Part shown: one piece after another, positions 14,328-59,652 of the stretch | Numbering within the stretch: position 1 is the first letter of the stretch | Layout: each line of letters starts with the position of its first letter | From: Candidatus Zambryskiibacteriota bacterium | Lineage (GTDB): Bacteria > Patescibacteriota > Minisyncoccia > Phycocordibacterales > Zambryskibacteraceae | Assembly (NCBI GenBank): GCA_016177225.1 | Contig: JACOVQ010000002.1 | Span: 1 to 59,652, forward strand | Direction: 5' to 3' | DNA length: 59,652 nt | Position numbers and translations under genes: made by a program | Notes under the pieces: model-generated | The model's database searches: none | Told to the model about the DNA's origin: nothing | The model's input: only the letters and a program-made list of their open reading frames with translations

Positions 14328-14972
14328 ATGAGTTTGCGTAAAATCCCATTTGTGCCAGATGAGTACTACCATATATACAGTCGCGGTAGTGATAAGCGCA
14401 AAATATTCCACGACAACTCAGATTACAATCGCTTCTTAAATATTCTTTACCTATCAAATTCCGACATTAATTTTAGATTCGATAGAATCGAAGATGTCTA
14501 CTCTACCGAACGTGGCCAAAGACTTGTTTCAATAGGAGCTTATTGTCTTATGCCAAATCACGTGCATATTCTCATAAAGCAAGTTGCGGAAAACGGTATA
14601 AGCAGATTTATGCATAAACTCTTAACCGCTTATTCCATGTATTACAATACCAAATATGAACGCACGGGAGGATTACTTGAAGGTAAGTTCAAAGCAGAAC
14701 TTCTTGATTCAGACAACTATCTTAAATATCTATTTTCTTATATACATTTAAACCCTGTGAAATTGATTGAGCCGAAGTGGAAAGAAAGTGGAATTAGAAA
14801 CAGAAATAAAGCTATAGATTTTCTTAATAAATACCGTTATTCAAGCTACCAAGATTTTATGAGAATAGACCGAAAGGAAAAAGCAATTCTAAATTTGGAA
14901 GATTTCCCGGAGTATTTCCCGACTAAGGAAAAATTCCAAGAAGAAATTTTCGACTGGATTGATTACAAATAA
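14328..14972 (+). CDS. REP-associated tyrosine transposase (RAYT, IS200/Y1 HUH family)
   Basis: YHIYSRG, LMPNHVHILI (HUH) and YIHLNPVK (catalytic Tyr region). Flanked by REP hairpins. Start taken at MSLRKIPF rather than the tracked TTG at 14241, which reads through the REPs. Confidence 0.85.
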   Translation: MSLRKIPFVPDEYYHIYSRGSDKRKIFHDNSDYNRFLNILYLSNSDINFRFDRIEDVYSTERGQRLVSIGAYCLMPNHVHILIKQVAENGISRFMHKLLTAYSMYYNTKYERTGGLLEGKFKAELLDSDNYLKYLFSYIHLNPVKLIEPKWKESGIRNRNKAIDFLNKYRYSSYQDFMRIDRKEKAILNLEDFPEYFPTKEKFQEEIFDWIDYK

Positions 14973-15062: not shown

Positions 15063-15067
15063 AATAG

Positions 15068-15384
15068 CGGTGTCGGATAGTTGCCCGCCATTGAGGCGGG
15101 AGGAAAGTCCGAACATTCAATTGTCTGTGCATGCATATGCGTGCAGATGATAAGGGTAGCGGGTAACGCCCGTCGGGAGCAATCCTAGAGATGAGAACAG
15201 AAATGACCCGGTTAAGTCCGGCTGAAACAGCAAAATTCTTACCTGAATGCAAGGCCGTGTCCAGCCCCAGTTTCTCAAAAATTGGAGGCGGAAGTGCCGC
15301 TAGAGGCTTCGAGTGATCGACGTCCCAGATAAATAACTATCTCCGCCGAAGAGGCGGAACAGAATTCGGCTTATAGACACCCGA
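15068..15384 (+). ncRNA. rnpB: RNase P RNA (bacterial type, compact)
   Basis: GGGAGGAAAGTCCGAAC (CR-I) and AACAGAATTCGGCTTAT (CR-V). P1 pairing GGTGTC/GACACC. GGGTAACGCCC module. Followed by the hairpin CGAACTCGCCCA-CATTG-TGGGCGAGTTCG. Confidence 0.85.
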
Positions 15385-15513
15385 ACTCGCCCACATTGTG
15401 GGCGAGTTCGTTTACCACGAGGAAAGACCTCGTGGTCTTTCCTGAATTTGTTTGACTTTTTCATTATTTATAGTACCTTTAATGTCAGAAATTGAACTTT
15501 TTGGAGGTATTGA

Positions 15514-16548
15514 ATGAAAAAAACGGCGCAACCTTTTTTTCCAAGATTGCTTGTTTGTGGAATGATAGTCCTGTCCGGGAGCTTACTATCGCACAACATC
15601 GCTGGCGAGTTCAATCGGGACGAGAACGATTTGTGGCTCGTAAAAAATCTGGCGGAAAATTATTACAAACTCTCCGGCTTCCCGAGCTTCGCAAGCGTTA
15701 GCGACGAAAAGACGACATTCGACACATCAATTGGCCAGCAAGTAAACAGCGTGCCGAGCGAGCTGTACGAATTTCGCCTGATACGGGACCGACGTCTGCT
15801 TCTTTTGAGAACATATGGCAGAACGGGACAGACGGCAAATCCAGTTGTGGTTGACGTCGCCTCGGTTGAAAAAGCGGCGGCATACGGGGAGATAAAAATT
15901 CCCCGTATGCTCATCAGCGTAAATCAGCAAGTAGAATTTCCACTGACTAACCTCAGTGAGAAGTCTATGGCTGAGTTGAGAAAATTTTATTCCGATTTCA
16001 CTCGACCCTTGCAGGTTCGACCGGACGACTTTAATCCGGAAAATGAAATCGGAAAACTGAAGAGCCACGCTTTCTGGCGGTCTATTGGCATATCTTTGTC
16101 TGTCGTTTCGACTGGCGGAATATGGCTTGGGGCAGTAAGTTCTGTACTAGGTTTCGCCGGACTTATCCTAAGCGGGTTGGCCTGGCATTCTCGCCAAAAC
16201 AAAAAAAGGGTTCTAGCGGCAGGTTATATCGGACAACAAAAGCAGGCGCGAGTAGAATACCAAGAAAAAGTCTTTATCAGACAGCCAGCGCCAGGACCGA
16301 AAAGATTTGCCGCGGCCAGAACTCCGGCAATGGAACGACAGCGATTGGTAGATTCTGTCTTGAGATTGACCAGCGGCACAGTGCCGTTATCGCCAAAAGT
16401 CCAAGAGTTGTTGGAAGAAGTGGAAAAAATACCACTGTCAGATTACCAAGAAACAGTGGGCAAAATTCGGCTAGCGAGAAATTTGCAGTGGAGAGCCTTC
16501 AGAAACGGAGGCGGTCCAAAGCAAATGGAACGTCTCCACACACATTAA
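15514..16548 (+). CDS. Hypothetical membrane protein (signal/anchor plus central TM pair)
   Basis: N-terminal LLVCGMIVLSGSLL and a central hydrophobic stretch ISLSVVSTGGIWLGAVSSVLGFAGLILSGLAW. GGAGG lies 6 nt upstream of the ATG. Visibly G+C-richer than its neighbours. Confidence 0.6.
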   Translation: MKKTAQPFFPRLLVCGMIVLSGSLLSHNIAGEFNRDENDLWLVKNLAENYYKLSGFPSFASVSDEKTTFDTSIGQQVNSVPSELYEFRLIRDRRLLLLRTYGRTGQTANPVVVDVASVEKAAAYGEIKIPRMLISVNQQVEFPLTNLSEKSMAELRKFYSDFTRPLQVRPDDFNPENEIGKLKSHAFWRSIGISLSVVSTGGIWLGAVSSVLGFAGLILSGLAWHSRQNKKRVLAAGYIGQQKQARVEYQEKVFIRQPAPGPKRFAAARTPAMERQRLVDSVLRLTSGTVPLSPKVQELLEEVEKIPLSDYQETVGKIRLARNLQWRAFRNGGGPKQMERLHTH

Positions 16549-16571
16549 AATCGTCCTTATTTGGGCAACTA

Positions 16572-16602
16572 GGCTACCTATTCTATAGGTAGCCGTTCTT
16601 TT
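16572..16602 (+). terminator. Rho-independent terminator
   Basis: GGCTACCTAT-TCT-ATAGGTAGCC followed by GTTCTTTT. Confidence 0.6.
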
Positions 16603-16604
16603 AC

Positions 16605-16633
16605 TTGACAAAATAATAAGTACCATATATAAT
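16605..16633 (+). promoter_or_regulatory. Consensus sigma70-type promoter TTGACA-17 nt-TATAAT
   Basis: TTGACA at 16605..16610, a 17-nt spacer, then TATAAT at 16628..16633. AGGAGG at 16653..16658 lies 5 nt upstream of ATG 16664. Confidence 0.65.
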
Positions 16634-16663
16634 ATAGATAGACAAATTCAATAGGAGGTTCCT

Positions 16664-18022
16664 ATGCGGAAAGTATTTGGGGTAATTTTTATCACATTCG
16701 TGGTCACAAATTTCCCTCTGGCACTTGCTCAACAACAAGACTGGTTGGCGCGATGCTGGACTATCAACGTCCAGCGAGTAAGTGGGGACATGATTTTCAT
16801 CTACCCCAACAGCGACAGCAGAGTCACTTCCAGCCTCATCGGCGGCAACTCGTTTGATGAGCAGGAAATGACTCGTTGTGTGTATAGTCGGCTGTACGGC
16901 AAAGGCAAGCCGGAAGAAGAGAACGACTTCGTTGCCTATGCGCAGACTATTCCAGACAACAATTCGTATCCAGCCTACTTCCTGCGGGCGATGAACGCCT
17001 CACCGGGACTCGGTCTGGGAAGGTACGACCGCTCGTTCATGTTCGGCAGCAAGGGACGATTGCTTGGTGTCATCAACACCGGATTCAGCATCGTCAACCT
17101 AAACGCCGAACTGCAAAACATTCACTTCGATGAGTTGAATCACGAAATAAGCCACACGAAATGTTGTTACGCGGGCCATCAGCATTACGAGTACATAAAT
17201 GCGTTCGGAGATGGTTTCGGACATTGGTCCCGCTATCTCGGACGCAACGCTCGCGGCGAAGACGGTCCGGACAATTGCTCTGTGATGAGAGCCTCTCCAT
17301 ATGTCGAGCTCGGCAACGGGGACGCGCAAACACGGAACTGCCATTACCAAAGCCGACCAACAATAAACTCGTTAGAGATGTATCTGTGGGGATTCAAAAA
17401 CGCAGATGCATCAAAAGGTAAACAATTCCCATCGGTATCGTCAAAAGGAACAAGCATTTCCCATGACATTTACCGGGCTCCGATTGAAAAGTGGCTGACC
17501 ATTGACGACCTCATTGCGAAGATGGACGGGGAGGTGGTTTGGCCATCGGCGGAAATTTCGCCGAAGCACTTGCGGGTTCTATTCGCTCTGGTTATCATGC
17601 CGGGAACGGACAACAGGCAACTGCAGGCAATGCAGAATCGCTGGCAAGAATTCGCGCGGTTGGCGAGAGGCACATGGAATGAAGCGACAGGTGGAGTGTC
17701 CACGCTGAATAATCCATCCAAACCAAATCCGACCATGTTGGTCAGCAAGGACTACTTGGGAAAGTGGGACTTCTCGTACCACCCGGGTGAGTGGCTGGTG
17801 TTAAACATCACTGGCGCCGTACCGAACCAGTGGGGTATTCTCGTCGGATTTGATGGAAAAAATCAGTATTCCATTTCCATCAAATCCGACGAGACAGGCA
17901 AGGCGGCGTTCTCCGCCTTACTGCTCAAGGACCATATCGGAACGTGGTCCGCAGTTGTGCACTTCGGGGATGGCGTGACCTCAAACGTGATCACGTTTGA
18001 GGTCACGCCTCCCGGTCAATAA
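16664..18022 (+). CDS. Secreted protein with an HExxH motif (putative zinc metallopeptidase)
   Basis: Signal peptide MRKVFGVIFITFVVTNFPLALAQ. LNHEISHTK is the only HExxH motif. Several Cys residues. No family recognised with confidence. Confidence 0.45.
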   Translation: MRKVFGVIFITFVVTNFPLALAQQQDWLARCWTINVQRVSGDMIFIYPNSDSRVTSSLIGGNSFDEQEMTRCVYSRLYGKGKPEEENDFVAYAQTIPDNNSYPAYFLRAMNASPGLGLGRYDRSFMFGSKGRLLGVINTGFSIVNLNAELQNIHFDELNHEISHTKCCYAGHQHYEYINAFGDGFGHWSRYLGRNARGEDGPDNCSVMRASPYVELGNGDAQTRNCHYQSRPTINSLEMYLWGFKNADASKGKQFPSVSSKGTSISHDIYRAPIEKWLTIDDLIAKMDGEVVWPSAEISPKHLRVLFALVIMPGTDNRQLQAMQNRWQEFARLARGTWNEATGGVSTLNNPSKPNPTMLVSKDYLGKWDFSYHPGEWLVLNITGAVPNQWGILVGFDGKNQYSISIKSDETGKAAFSALLLKDHIGTWSAVVHFGDGVTSNVITFEVTPPGQ

Positions 18023-25131: not shown

Positions 25132-25521
25132 TTATACATTAGATACAGGAATCTTATTGCTTGCCTTTCTTATAATAGCGGAAAATATTAAATGAAGTTC
25201 TTGAGCTTCCCTAAAAAGGACTTGCAGATCGACGGTGTGTTCTGGAGTGAATTCAGTCATCAATTTTAACCAGTACTTCGTTTCGTTAGCTTCTTTCTTG
25301 GAAATAGAGATTTTATTGATAAAATCTTTCTTAGAATTAGCTGAATCTGCTTCAGAATAATTGGCACCTATGCTCGTGCCCGATCTTATTAACTGGCTTA
25401 TCACGGGCTTAGTAATATGGTCTTGCCTAAGCTTACGACAGCACTTTAACAAATCCTGACTAAACTTAAAAGTTCTGTCTGCTAAATCGTAAGTCTTACT
25501 ATCTGTATTATCTTTAGTCAT
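25132..25521 (-). CDS. Four-helix-bundle protein (23S rRNA intervening-sequence protein family)
   Basis: SQLIRSGTSIGANYSEA, FINKISISKKEANETKYWLKL. Confidence 0.8.
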   Translation of the reverse strand: MTKDNTDSKTYDLADRTFKFSQDLLKCCRKLRQDHITKPVISQLIRSGTSIGANYSEADSANSKKDFINKISISKKEANETKYWLKLMTEFTPEHTVDLQVLFREAQELHLIFSAIIRKASNKIPVSNV

Positions 25522-56685: not shown

Positions 56686-57525
56686 TCAAATATTATACAC
56701 TTCCTTCAAAATCTCGGCATCTTTCCTGCTTTCTTTTAATAATTCAATGTTTTTATCGCGTATCGACTCTAAAACTTTGAGACCTTTTTCATCTTTAACC
56801 TTATCTTTATATGAGCGGAGAAGCGCTTCAAAATCTTTAGGAAAGCAACGCCCACCGGCTCCACGTCCGCTCTTATGAATAGGTCGAGCGTAACGATTAG
56901 GGACAAATGGATCTGCCTGCATAGCTTCTTCGATCTTTCCCCAATTGGCTTCCAAAGCTTGCGAAAGGTCGTATATTAAGTTGAAGAAAATTATTTGGGT
57001 ATAGCCGCCGCAATTGTGCGCATACTTTATCAATTCGGCTTCTTCGCTAGACACAGTGGTAGAAAATGGAGCTTTAGGAAGAAGAGTATGGACCAGTTCT
57101 GCCGCTTTTTTATATGTATCAGTATCTTTAGGTATACCTACAATATTGGCAAATGGATGAGAGGTATCATATGCAACAGTCGCTTCGCTCAAGAATTCTG
57201 GAGAGTGTATCAGAATAACATCAGGATTTTCTTCTTGAAGTTTCTTTGTAAGACCAGGGTAAATCGTGGATTTAAGGATAGCGATTTTCCCTTTCCCAAC
57301 CAGAGGAATGACTGCACGAAGAATTGAAGCATCATAACCTTCCAGAGTAGTGGAAGTGGGCACCGCGATAAAGACCACATCGCAATCTTTAATTTTTGCT
57401 TCATTGGCAATGTAAGGCTCTTCTTTCGAATATCTAACAACTTCATATCCGCAAGATTCGAAATTATCGGCAAAATGTTTGCCGACCATCCCTTGACCTA
57501 TAAATCCTATTTTAATGTCTTTCAT
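56686..57525 (-). CDS. UDP-glucose/GDP-mannose dehydrogenase-family protein lacking the C-terminal domain
   Basis: IKIGFIGQGMVGKHF (Rossmann) and GRGAGGRCFPKDF (catalytic Cys motif). About 280 aa from MKDIKIG. The tracked TTG start reads through tRNA-like sequence. Confidence 0.6.
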   Translation of the reverse strand: MKDIKIGFIGQGMVGKHFADNFESCGYEVVRYSKEEPYIANEAKIKDCDVVFIAVPTSTTLEGYDASILRAVIPLVGKGKIAILKSTIYPGLTKKLQEENPDVILIHSPEFLSEATVAYDTSHPFANIVGIPKDTDTYKKAAELVHTLLPKAPFSTTVSSEEAELIKYAHNCGGYTQIIFFNLIYDLSQALEANWGKIEEAMQADPFVPNRYARPIHKSGRGAGGRCFPKDFEALLRSYKDKVKDEKGLKVLESIRDKNIELLKESRKDAEILKEVYNI

Positions 57526-57529
57526 CCGG

Positions 57530-57566
57530 TGCGCGCGCCAAGGGTCGAACTTGGGACCTTTCGAGT
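57530..57566 (-). pseudogene. tRNA 3'-half-like fragment (anticodon-stem 3' strand, variable loop, T arm, acceptor 3' strand)
   Basis: Minus strand reads ACTCGAAAGGTC-CCAAG-TTCGACC-CTTGG-CGCGCGC-A. Paralogous to the 3' half of tRNA-Ile with compensatory T-stem changes. No matching 5' half lies adjacent. Confidence 0.45.
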
Positions 57567-57633
57567 GAGAAAGCGTGGGACGCTTTCGCAAGACCTTTTG
57601 AGATATTTTAAATAAATTTGATACCGAGCTTCG

Positions 57634-57706
57634 TGCGCGCACTTGGGGTCGAACCAAGGACCTTTCGAGTATCAGTCGAATGCTCTACCAACTGAGCTAT
57701 GCGCGC
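57634..57706 (-). tRNA. tRNA-Ile(GAU)
   Basis: GCGCGCA-TA-GCTCAGTTGGTAGAGC-A-TTCGA-CTGATAC-TCGAA-AGGTC-CTTGG-TTCGACC-CCAAG-TGCGCGC-A. TATAAT lies 9 nt upstream. Confidence 0.9.
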
Positions 57707-57864
57707 ACGAAGCTAATTATACGATTTATTTATAAATATCCAAAAGGTGTACAGTTCCTGTAAGGAATCAGTCGAAGTCACAAGTCAAAGCCTACTGGCT
57801 TTGCTTGCGACCCCGCCTCGCGTCGTCACGCTCCGACCTTCCGGTCGGGTCCCACCCCGACCTC

Positions 57865-57889
57865 ACTCCGCCAGCTGAGCTACACGCGC
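57865..57889 (-). pseudogene. tRNA 5'-fragment-like sequence (acceptor 5' strand plus D arm)
   Basis: GCGCGTG-TA-GCTC-AGCTGGCG-GAGT. Its acceptor strand is complementary to the 3' fragment at 57530..57566. No anticodon or T arm follows. Confidence 0.35.
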
Positions 57890-57969
57890 CTTCGCCAAGC
57901 CATAGCTTGGCTTCGGCGACGCGAAGCGCGCTAAGACAAGCGAAGGCTAGATTACCAAAAGAATATATC

Positions 57970-57997
57970 AAAAAGCTCGCCATCTGGCGAGCTTTTT
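57970..57997 (-). terminator. Rho-independent terminator downstream of the 16S rRNA gene
   Basis: AAAAAGCTCGCC-AGAT-GGCGAGCTTTTT (minus strand). Confidence 0.6.
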
Positions 57998-58184
57998 GCA
58001 TTTGATTCATATCATTCTCTCTTTTGTTCCGGAGAGACTTACTCTCATACAAATCGTTTTTAGGACTACGATTATCGTCCTATGCCTTGCGGCAAAATCG
58101 ACCATATAAGTCCTTTCCCTATTCGGGAAGAACGGAATTATATTGAATTACTCCACGAGCAGGTTCTCCTACCCGTGCCTTGTT

Positions 58185-58950
58185 CATGTTCTACCCTCAT
58201 GTCGCCATGAGGCACGGACTATATCATCACCCTTGTTTGAAGAATTTTCCCTTTGATAGGATGTGCTGATCCAATCTTTGAGGCAAAATTTTTATGAGAT
58301 TTTGCTCTTACATAGACTCTCCAGTAGTCCGGGTCAACACGTTCGCTAGGATTGTGTATTTTCCCTGTACTGATGTCTAACGTAGAGAGCATTCTCACAA
58401 GCTTCTCAATTTTAGTTCGATCTTTCTGAACTAGCTGAATATAGAATCCAGCTTTTACATTTCGAGGAACGCCTCCTTCGGCGTCAAAGAAACCTCTAAT
58501 ATATGCCGCTTTTTCTGCATTCGTAACCAGTGTTAGTGGATCGAATCGAAAATCAAGAAACTTCGCAAGTGTTTCCAATGTGTAGACTTCGCGATTTCTC
58601 TCTCTGTAGATCCAGGACTTATATCCAAGTTCCTGAAATAACTTTTGAAGAAACGTTAGCCATTCTGTACCCTTCTGGGTAAAACGGTATCGTTTCTTCT
58701 TATTGAGAGAGGCGTCGTGAAGCGCACCCAATAGATAAGCTTGTATTTCTTCACAAGGGGCTCGGCGTGTAGTCTCTGAGGGGTCAACAACGACTTCCCT
58801 GCTGATTCTCTGCACCTGTAACTTTGTTACAATTATGATACTTAATTATATCATAGCTGTAGTCCAGGATTCCCAGAATTTCCAGCATATAGCCAAGCTT
58901 ATTTTTCCAGAAATTACTTTCTGGCGTCGCAACGGACGCAGTTTGCGTCT
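58185..58950 (-). mobile_element. 766-nt intervening sequence in 16S at the AAGTCGT|AACAAGG site (E. coli ~1500)
   Basis: The exon junction reconstitutes the universal AAGTCGTAACAAGG. The 5' exon ends in U and the insert ends in G. It contains a LAGLIDADG ORF. Confidence 0.8.
58219..58815 (-). CDS. Double-motif LAGLIDADG homing endonuclease
   Basis: YLLGALHDAS and YIRGFFDAEGG motifs, about 90 aa apart. Confidence 0.85.
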   Translation of the reverse strand: MQRISREVVVDPSETTRRAPCEEIQAYLLGALHDASLNKKKRYRFTQKGTEWLTFLQKLFQELGYKSWIYRERNREVYTLETLAKFLDFRFDPLTLVTNAEKAAYIRGFFDAEGGVPRNVKAGFYIQLVQKDRTKIEKLVRMLSTLDISTGKIHNPSERVDPDYWRVYVRAKSHKNFASKIGSAHPIKGKILQTRVMI

Positions 58951-58984
58951 ACGACTTCGCCTTTGTCATTGAGTTTACCGTGGG

Positions 58985-59039
58985 CCCAGCCCCAGTTTTA
59001 CGATTTTAGAAAATTCTACTTCCTAAAACTGGGGCTGGG
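58985..59039 (-). repeat. Expansion at the tip of 16S helix 44 (16-bp perfect stem)
   Basis: CCCAGCCCCAGTTTTA ... TAAAACTGGGGCTGGG. This region is about 30 nt longer than in E. coli. Confidence 0.6.
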
Positions 59040-59303
59040 ACTTCGGGTACTCCCAACTTCCCTGGCGTGACGGGCGGTGAGTACAAGACTTGAGAACGTA
59101 TTCACCGCGGTATGGCTGACCCGCGATTACTAGCAATTCCAACTTCATGGGGTCGAGTTGCAGCCCCCAATCCGAACTGACGCCGCTTTTCTTACGATTA
59201 GCTCGGGGTTACCCCGTCGCAACGCGTTGTGGCGGCGATTGTATTATGCGTGTAGCCCAAGGTATCAAGGGACATGCTGACCTGGCGTCATCCTCGCCTT
59301 CCT

Positions 59304-59387
59304 CCCCGATTTAAATTTTTGATTAAAGGTTCGACCTTTAGAATTCCCAAGGTCGAACCTTGGGAACTTCAAAAACTTAAATCGGGG
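59304..59387 (-). repeat. ~70-nt expansion of 16S helix 40 containing a family-B double hairpin
   Basis: CCCCGATTTAA ... TTAAATCGGGG encloses AAGGTTCGACCTT (59326..59338) and AAGGTCGAACCTT (59349..59361). E. coli has a 15-nt hairpin at this position. Confidence 0.8.
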
Positions 59388-59621
59388 CAGTCTCGCCAGA
59401 CACTTATAACTGGCAACGAGGGTTGCGTTCGTTACCCCACTTAAGGGAACAGCTCAAACCACGAACTGACGACGGCCATGCATCACCTGTCCAGCACATA
59501 CCTTTCGGTATTCTGCTCATTTCTGAGACGGCATTATGTGCTGGGTTTCTAACCTTGGTAAGGTTCTTCGTTTACCTACGAATTAAACCGCATAATCCAC
59601 TGCTTGTGCAAGTCCCCGTCT

Positions 59622-59652
<31 letters not shown>

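Follow-up and report, generated by a model that had tools for sequence, protein, structure and literature searches.

Probable inherited loss of the anti-Shine-Dalgarno core from the single 16S rRNA gene of a groundwater Parcubacteria bacterium

The 16S rRNA gene and its surroundings

The window, which is the whole 59,652-nt stretch of DNA analysed here, ends within a 16S rRNA gene on the minus strand (58097-59652, including the downstream spacer). The Rfam bacterial small-subunit rRNA model (RF00177) matches 58931-59652(-) with 476.9 bits over model positions 880-1533, and the gene is truncated by the window end; its 5′ half lies outside the window, and gene integrity was judged on the 3′ half. 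The 5′ exon (58951..59652, minus strand) corresponds to approximately E. coli position 880 to U1498, with U58951 as its last base. A match to the group I intron model was found at 58195-58945(-) (RF00028, 51.3 bits compared with a gathering score of 50). Intron boundaries were set using the group I rule, under which U is the last base of the 5′ exon and G the last base of the intron, and this rule gives a 766-nt intron at 58185..58950(-), directly after U1498, so the label of 3′ exon that had been given to the remaining segment is correct. A LAGLIDADG homing-endonuclease ORF is located inside the intron (58219-58815(-); Pfam LAGLIDADG_3, E = 7.7e-18), which is classed as a group I intron with a homing endonuclease in 16S, and which is predicted to be spliced. 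Exon joining restores GUCGU/AACAAGG, matching intron-less relatives, and five other relatives (L007, L008, L010, L150 and L152) have an intron at the identical site, ending ...CATG before AACAAGG. The gene also carries two CPR-type insertions relative to the bacterial model, one of 72 nt near model position 1160 (~59310-59385(-)) and one of 37 nt that enlarges the tip of helix 44 (~58985-59040(-)); both segments are skipped or replaced in RNA and DNA contigs from related organisms.

The 3′ exon begins at A58184 and reads AACAAGG-CACGGGUAGG-AGAA-CCUGCUCGUG-GAGUAAUUCAAUAU, the minus strand over 58140-58184 being AACAAGGCACGGGTAGGAGAACCTGCTCGTGGAGTAATTCAATAT. The exon start, AACAAGG (1499-1505) followed by helix 45 (58154..58184(-)), was assigned from the sequence, the fold and the relatives. 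Helix 45 itself (58154-58177(-), CACGGGUAGG-AGAA-CCUGCUCGUG) folds into a 10-bp stem with an AGAA loop, and G1530 and A1531 are kept as in E. coli. The spacer beyond the 16S tail spans 58097..58132(-), and contains a predicted hairpin (UUCCC-GAAUA-GGGAA, 58115-58129(-)) and a conserved GTCGAT motif (58097-58102(-)) that is probably the 3′ strand of a 16S processing stem. The motif, as GTCGAT or GTCGGY, is present in relatives with and without a canonical tail alike, at a similar distance from helix 45.

The 16S gene is a stand-alone transcription unit with its own intrinsic terminator at 57969..57998(-), a 13-bp stem and T run identical in the close relative L189; the hairpin had previously been placed at 57970..57997. 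A tRNA-Ile(GAU) gene at 57633-57706(-) has a separate promoter (TTGGAT at 57738-57743, a 16-nt spacer and TATAAT at 57716-57721), and because the 16S and tRNA-Ile genes are followed by a protein-coding gene instead of a 23S gene, the rRNA genes are unlinked. A GC-rich structured element (57750-57905(-)) separates the 16S terminator from the tRNA-Ile promoter. Its 5′ end resembles a tRNA acceptor strand and D-arm (GCGCGUGUAGCUCAGCUGGCGGAGU) and is followed by a 7-bp stem-loop and a long hairpin; the element is kept in L189 (994-1168) with three compensatory pair changes, and matches nothing in ARAGORN or Rfam. Downstream of tRNA-Ile, the segment at 57527-57600(-) resembles a tRNA 3′ half (UCGAA-AGGUC-CCAAG-UUCGACC-CUUGG-CGCGCGC-A) without a matching 5′ half, stops 3 nt short of the start codon (ATG, 57525) of a gene resembling UDP-glucose dehydrogenase, and is also kept in L189 (~1310-1378). 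This segment could be a tRNA-Ala relic or an integration scar. Permissive Rfam scans of 57500-57960, covering both tRNA-like elements, returned no family, and a split tRNA with 57750-57905 as the 5′ half and 57527-57600 as the 3′ half was rejected as the anticodon-stem strands are, by inspection, not complementary. A low-depth variant (~5x compared with 500-900x) in the groundwater DNA runs X1 and X3 has 130 nt containing tRNA-Ile (57606-57737) replaced by the 14 nt ATTTGTATTCAAAG, and could represent a strain or relative without tRNA-Ile at that site.

The 16S 3′ tail and its distribution among relatives

Downstream of helix 45 the 3′ exon continues GGAGUAAUUCAAUAU, giving a 16S 3′ tail (GAGUAAUUCAAUAU, 58140..58153(-)) that corresponds to positions 1530-1542 plus one more base. 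After the retained G1530 and A1531 the window has GUAAUUCAAUA, compared with UCACCUCCUUA in E. coli. AUUCA replaces the anti-Shine-Dalgarno (aSD) core CCUCC at 1535-1539 (58144-58148), such that three of the five core positions are altered and U1537 and C1538 are left; the other changes are UCA to GUA at 1532-1534 and UUA to AUA. The GAUCA box directly after helix 45, which is the Era-binding site, is thereby altered to GAGUA. A canonical tail (GAUCACCUCCUUA) has CCUCC within ~6-10 nt 3′ of helix 45, and none is present at that distance here, where GGAUCACCUCCUUA has become GGAGUAAUUCAAUA by substitution in a tail of normal length.

The sequence-only reading had reported a tail without CCUCC at 58140-58184 and no plus-strand GGAGG across 57707-58150, and both observations hold over a wider range, with GGAGG absent from the plus strand everywhere above 56500, CCUCC (RNA sense) absent from 57500-58200, and a single plus-strand GGAG in the latter interval, at 58031. 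Searches for GATCACCTCCTTTCT (up to 3 mismatches) and CACCTCCTT (up to 1 mismatch) gave only chance-level matches across the whole window on both strands. Relatives with an identical helix 45 show GGATCACCTCCTTTCTA exactly at this place, which indicates more than chance, and the deviation of the window begins exactly at 1532.

Tail degeneration is shared by most relatives with this helix 45. Species-representative genomes from GTDB were scanned for this helix 45 with ACC at tail positions 3-5 excluded, and 61 genomes with degenerate tails were found, all Patescibacteria (labelled Kaiser-, Adler-, Nomura-, Vogel-, Taylor-, Niyogi- and Staskawiczbacteria, Paceibacterota and Minisyncoccia). Those labelled Minisyncoccia or Minisyncoccales include L180 and L183; Minisyncoccia is also the class of the cultured Minisyncoccus archaeiphilus. 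The complementary scan, requiring the same helix 45 followed by TCACCTCC, returned only 5 species genomes. The comparison with relatives that had been proposed as a check therefore gives a canonical tail (GGAUCACCUCC or GGATCACCTCC) in only 5 of 66 species genomes with this helix 45, and 61 of 66 without CCUCC. Neither CTCC nor CCTC occurs within 17 nt after GGA in any of 62 tails (the 61 species and the window), and the column consensus of the aSD-less set is GGA-W-Y-A-W-U-U-C-M-A-A.

The best blastn matches of the window 16S are L179 (Taylorbacteria, 83-88%) followed by L138 and L121 (Adlerbacteria), all of which are aSD-less, whereas canonical relatives are farther away (73-81%). The host is a Parcubacteria/Paceibacteria (CPR) bacterium from groundwater, whose nearest relatives here are Taylorbacteria-like; the presence of obgE in the window fits the Paceibacteria pattern (PMC12641178). 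The exact helix 45 and tail of the window had no match in the first genome scan, so the GTDB representatives searched do not include the species. Closer relatives were recovered from a metagenome scan, of which L188 and L190 read GGAGUAUUUCAAUUGAAAC, and L187, L189 and L191 read GGAGUAAUUCAAUUCAAUACCUCCUCAUAC.

The first 12 tail nucleotides (GGAGUAWUUCAA) are common to the window, L179, L188 and L189, and the sequences diverge beyond them, which suggests by homology a mature 16S 3′ end near 58141, ~12-14 nt past helix 45. Contigs in four groundwater metatranscriptomes come from relatives only (likeness at least 96%), and the window tail sequence was not found in the indexed RNA runs. An RNA contig of one relative (X6) has the intron-less junction and the tail GGAUUCUUUCCAAAAUUGG, and since it extends 169 nt into the spacer it defines no 3′ end. 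Two other features of the tail were considered and rejected. The TATAAT at 58136-58141 is not conserved in L189 and is probably a chance occurrence rather than a promoter, and a fold-back mini-hairpin (GGAN-NNN-NUCC) has its fourth pair in only 46% of 37 unique tails, with no covariation.

CCUCC does occur farther down the spacer in some aSD-less relatives. L187, L189 and L191 have ACCUCCU 19 nt after GGA, partly within the spacer hairpin, and in L160 and L179 the motif is ~63 nt away. In the aSD-less L138 and L158, a spacer CCUCC ~23 nt after helix 45 lies in the first hairpin and is paired to GGAG, resembling an intramolecular SD-aSD helix. These motifs were rejected as displaced aSDs on account of hairpin pairing (L138, L158) or distance (L160, L179), with L189 ambiguous. 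L189's own genes have no Shine-Dalgarno (SD) motifs and its CCUCC is probably incidental, with a displaced aSD in that lineage remaining a caveat.

Shine-Dalgarno motifs and start-site geometry

Use of SD motifs was assessed upstream of long non-overlapping ORFs, which are crude gene calls beginning at the first ATG near the 5′ end, with internal ATGs as controls. GGAG or GAGG was present at -20 to -3 in 4 of 46 window genes, compared with 10.8% of internal ATGs. Strong SD 5-mers preceded 3 of 46 genes against a control rate of 3.2% (p = 0.19), and the mean duplex energy to CACCUCCUUUCU was -2.32 kcal/mol for the window compared with -3.42 kcal/mol for controls. Firmicutes loci that had been fetched by chance were run through the same pipeline and served as a positive control, showing GGAG or GAGG in 35% of genes versus 8% of controls, strong 5-mers in 22.8% versus 2.7% (p = 6e-14), and duplex energies of -6.30 versus -3.71 kcal/mol (p = 8e-7); as the caller recovers only 35% SD in Firmicutes, the test is insensitive, though valid. 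The window behaves like Bacteroidota negative-control loci (-2.13 versus -3.65 kcal/mol). SD/aSD complementarity at -20 to -3 is thus not enriched in the ~46 window genes, whereas the Firmicutes control is strongly positive; clear enrichment is the result that the sequence-only reading had named as counting against it.

Good SD-like motifs with proper spacing were seen in three or four genes (15514, 16664, 41293 and 52062), of which one encodes a radical-SAM enzyme and the other three match no Pfam family. The only strong motifs in the window, GGAGGT and AGGAGGT, each 5 nt before ATG, belong to two adjacent hypothetical genes without Pfam families at 15514-18022(+). These genes adjoin RNase P RNA (15065-15388) and an IS200-like Y1 transposase (14328-14972), and may have been horizontally acquired. 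Among relatives, the pooled aSD-less set (388 genes) showed a weak enrichment of strong SD 5-mers (5.9% versus 3.1%, p = 0.003), and Parcubacteria with a canonical aSD showed no SD signal (3 of 47 genes at 7 loci; -2.54 versus -3.51 kcal/mol).

Among 5-mers in the 25 nt preceding window starts, TATAA and ATAAT were enriched the most (11 of 46 observed compared with 1.7 expected), with the hexamer beginning at -15 to -12. A near-consensus -10 box ending 4-9 nt before the start was found for 11 of 57 ORFs versus 8 of 503 internal ATGs, which bears out the proposed tie between the altered tail and leaderless-type starts. Starts of this type occur in core genes such as those for SecA (27080), signal peptidase (22949), Hsp20 (6058) and glutaredoxin (7643), and also in UDP-GlcNAc 2-epimerase (32511) and an O-antigen-ligase-like gene (29820). 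Another 11 genes reach back across the upstream stop codon, with overlaps of 1-16 nt. A gene of the '23S rRNA intervening sequence protein' family (PF05635), free-standing between gatB and obgE at 25132-25521(-), likewise shows leaderless-type geometry, with TAAAAT 4 nt upstream of its ATG. The peak at -12 to -14 is present in aSD-less relatives and canonical relatives alike. Taken as predicted start sites, this signature points to leaderless first cistrons and coupled re-initiation downstream.

Interpretation and comparison with known systems

Very probably, the aSD core has truly been lost from the only 16S gene of this bacterium, and the loss is inherited. With the core altered, the ribosome would be unable to form an SD-aSD helix, a proposal of the sequence-only reading with which the absence of an SD signal in ~46 window genes is consistent. 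First cistrons would be translated from leaderless mRNAs, in which a -10 box 4-9 nt before ATG would place the start codon at or near the 5′ end, and translation of downstream cistrons would re-initiate where the start codon overlaps or adjoins the stop codon before it. Relatives with CCUCC intact have no SD signal and do have the leaderless signature (only 47 genes at 7 loci), so SD use was probably lost before the aSD, which may then have decayed under relaxed selection. Era recognises GAUCACCUCC (PMC10582724), and era is missing from most CPR, including most Paceibacteria (PMC10582724, PMC12641178). Because Era reads this sequence, its absence from most Paceibacteria fits the decay, and would remove a second constraint on the tail.

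An assembly chimera at helix 45, or a pseudogene accompanied by a functional canonical 16S elsewhere, was considered as an alternative. In its favour, helix 45 is part of a 29-nt segment (58156-58184) common to other community members and the only segment at which the Logan contigs and unitigs of runs X1 and X2 break. Sampled words of the window are, however, present at 87-93% in four groundwater DNA runs, and Logan contigs from the four independent runs show 0 differences over the junction at 58150, including single contigs that cross it in X3 (58104-58344) and in X4 (1411 nt, 57685-59095). A second rRNA operon, which had been named as a possible refutation, is not supported by contig depth; in X2, depth is 30-33 over the organism-specific 16S pieces compared with 29.7 over the single-copy protein-coding flank, and this uniformity speaks for a single 16S per genome. 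Depth is noisier in X1 and X3, where the rRNA region reaches ~1.5-1.8x the flank, an excess attributed to co-occurring strains. As the tail and whole spacer architecture also recur in the independently assembled L187, L189 and L191, and the 16S body scores well against the bacterial model, an artefact or dead copy is very improbable. It is extremely improbable that splicing or processing restores the UCACCUCCUUA tail from behind another, unrecognised intervening sequence or from a fragment encoded separately, an idea lent some plausibility by the group I intron and two insertions already present in this gene, and by the several that CPR 16S genes often have. Canonical relatives (labelled Yanofskybacteria, Giovannonibacteria and other Parcubacteria) have the order helix 45, GGAUCACCUCCUUUCUA, hairpin and GTCGAT, with 39-65 nt from GGA to GTCGAT compared with 49 nt in the window, which leaves no room for an extra insertion and indicates that the tail differs by substitution. 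The terminator follows 150 nt downstream, no Rfam intron match lies downstream of helix 45, no canonical tail was found on either strand of the window (~58 kb beyond the gene), and 61 other species have the same tail type.

A displaced or cryptic aSD was also considered, in which a longer mature 16S would use the pyrimidine-rich UUCCGUUCUUCCC (58125-58137), or the altered tail would itself be a new anti-SD for a non-canonical mRNA motif. The ACCUCCU of L189 occupies the equivalent spacer position, and retention of AUUCMAA in more than 60 species hints at selection on the tail. The pyrimidine stretch is, however, the 5′ strand of the spacer hairpin, and L189's genes lack SD motifs. Upstream regions in the window pair worse than controls with the window's own tail (-1.62 versus -1.98 kcal/mol) and with an extended tail (-3.51 versus -4.88 kcal/mol), and 455 genes from aSD-less genomes, each compared with its own tail, show no complementarity upstream or downstream of starts, so the altered tail was rejected as a new anti-SD. 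Among 128 aSD-less organisms, Amin et al. (PMC6107228) likewise saw no variant SD/aSD pairs. This alternative is therefore rated as quite improbable, and inherited loss of the aSD core is retained as the preferred explanation. A broader reading, to which we give about even weight, is that the clade with helix 45 CACGNGUAGGRGAACCUGCNCGUG may have shifted the whole of initiation to a leaderless and re-initiation mode like that of archaea and mitochondria, with SD use abandoned first, the aSD and the Era-binding GAUCA then decaying in >90% of species, and the tail keeping its length and a new conserved motif, GGA-WYAWUUCMAA.

The SD-aSD helix is the textbook mechanism of bacterial start-site selection, and the aSD ranks with the most conserved parts of rRNA. 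Outright loss of the aSD, beyond mere disuse, in an entire free-standing bacterial clade would mark the mechanism as dispensable and provide a natural system in which to study SD-independent initiation. Gene callers that weight ribosome-binding sites will misplace starts in aSD-less genomes, 16S annotation pipelines that seek CCUCC will misannotate the 3′ end, and expression of CPR genes in other hosts, or tools for the few cultured Paceibacteria, should avoid reliance on SD motifs.

Absence of the aSD is already on record for this clade. Tsurumaki, Saito, Tomita and Kanai 2022 (RNA 28:1041; PMC9297842) found the anti-SD CCTCCT in only 48% of Parcubacteria, with the lineages without it overlapping the uL1-lacking group, and SD helices are thought not to form there. 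The window is a Parcubacteria sequence without CCTCCT, and its nearest relatives (Taylor-, Adler-, Kaiser- and Nomurabacteria labels) all have degenerate tails, as in that subgroup. It therefore adds one more member, and its value is confirmatory. To the motif absence and uL1 overlap of that study, the present analysis adds a tail of normal length with a conserved replacement consensus, the lack of CCUCC in 61 of 66 genomes, the absence of SD motifs even in aSD-keeping relatives, and the leaderless-type or stop-overlapping starts. Three of these points may be new, on the basis of crude gene calls and small loci: the consensus that replaces the canonical tail, the division of 61 to 5 among genomes with this helix 45, and the sign that SD use gave way to leaderless initiation before the aSD was lost.

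Beyond this clade, Amin et al. 2018 (PMC6107228) described 128 aSD-less organisms, in which absence of CCUCCU generally goes with absence of SD motifs, and Lim et al. 2012 described 15 aSD-less organisms, also without SD motifs. Organisms without CCUCCU in these studies include Flavobacteriia (Chryseobacterium, Elizabethkingia, Riemerella and Blattabacterium), some Mycoplasma and Candidatus Carsonella, which resemble the window in having an altered 13-nt tail, no matching SD enriched and no compensating SD/aSD pair, but belong to other phyla and represent independent losses. To our knowledge, leaderless -10/ATG geometry is not the stated alternative in these organisms. Bacteroidota use A-rich unstructured leaders and have an anti-SD that is sequestered by ribosomal proteins. 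They share SD-independent initiation with the window, in line with the match in SD statistics to the Bacteroidota control loci, but retain an unused CCUCC that is absent here; the CCUCC-keeping Parcubacteria without SD use (L001, L006, L007 and L008) are nearer to the Bacteroidota state than the window is.

A literature search returned no report describing leaderless initiation in CPR, Patescibacteria or Parcubacteria. Leaderless-dominant translation is known from GeneMarkS-2 'class C' bacteria (Deinococcus and many Actinobacteria), haloarchaea and mammalian mitochondria. The predicted starts in the window resemble these systems in the -10 element enriched directly upstream of the start, the lack of SD motifs and the stop/start overlaps downstream. 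Most leaderless-rich bacteria differ in keeping a canonical aSD and using SD for part of their genes, whereas mammalian mitochondria, like the window, have a small-subunit rRNA (12S) without an anti-SD.
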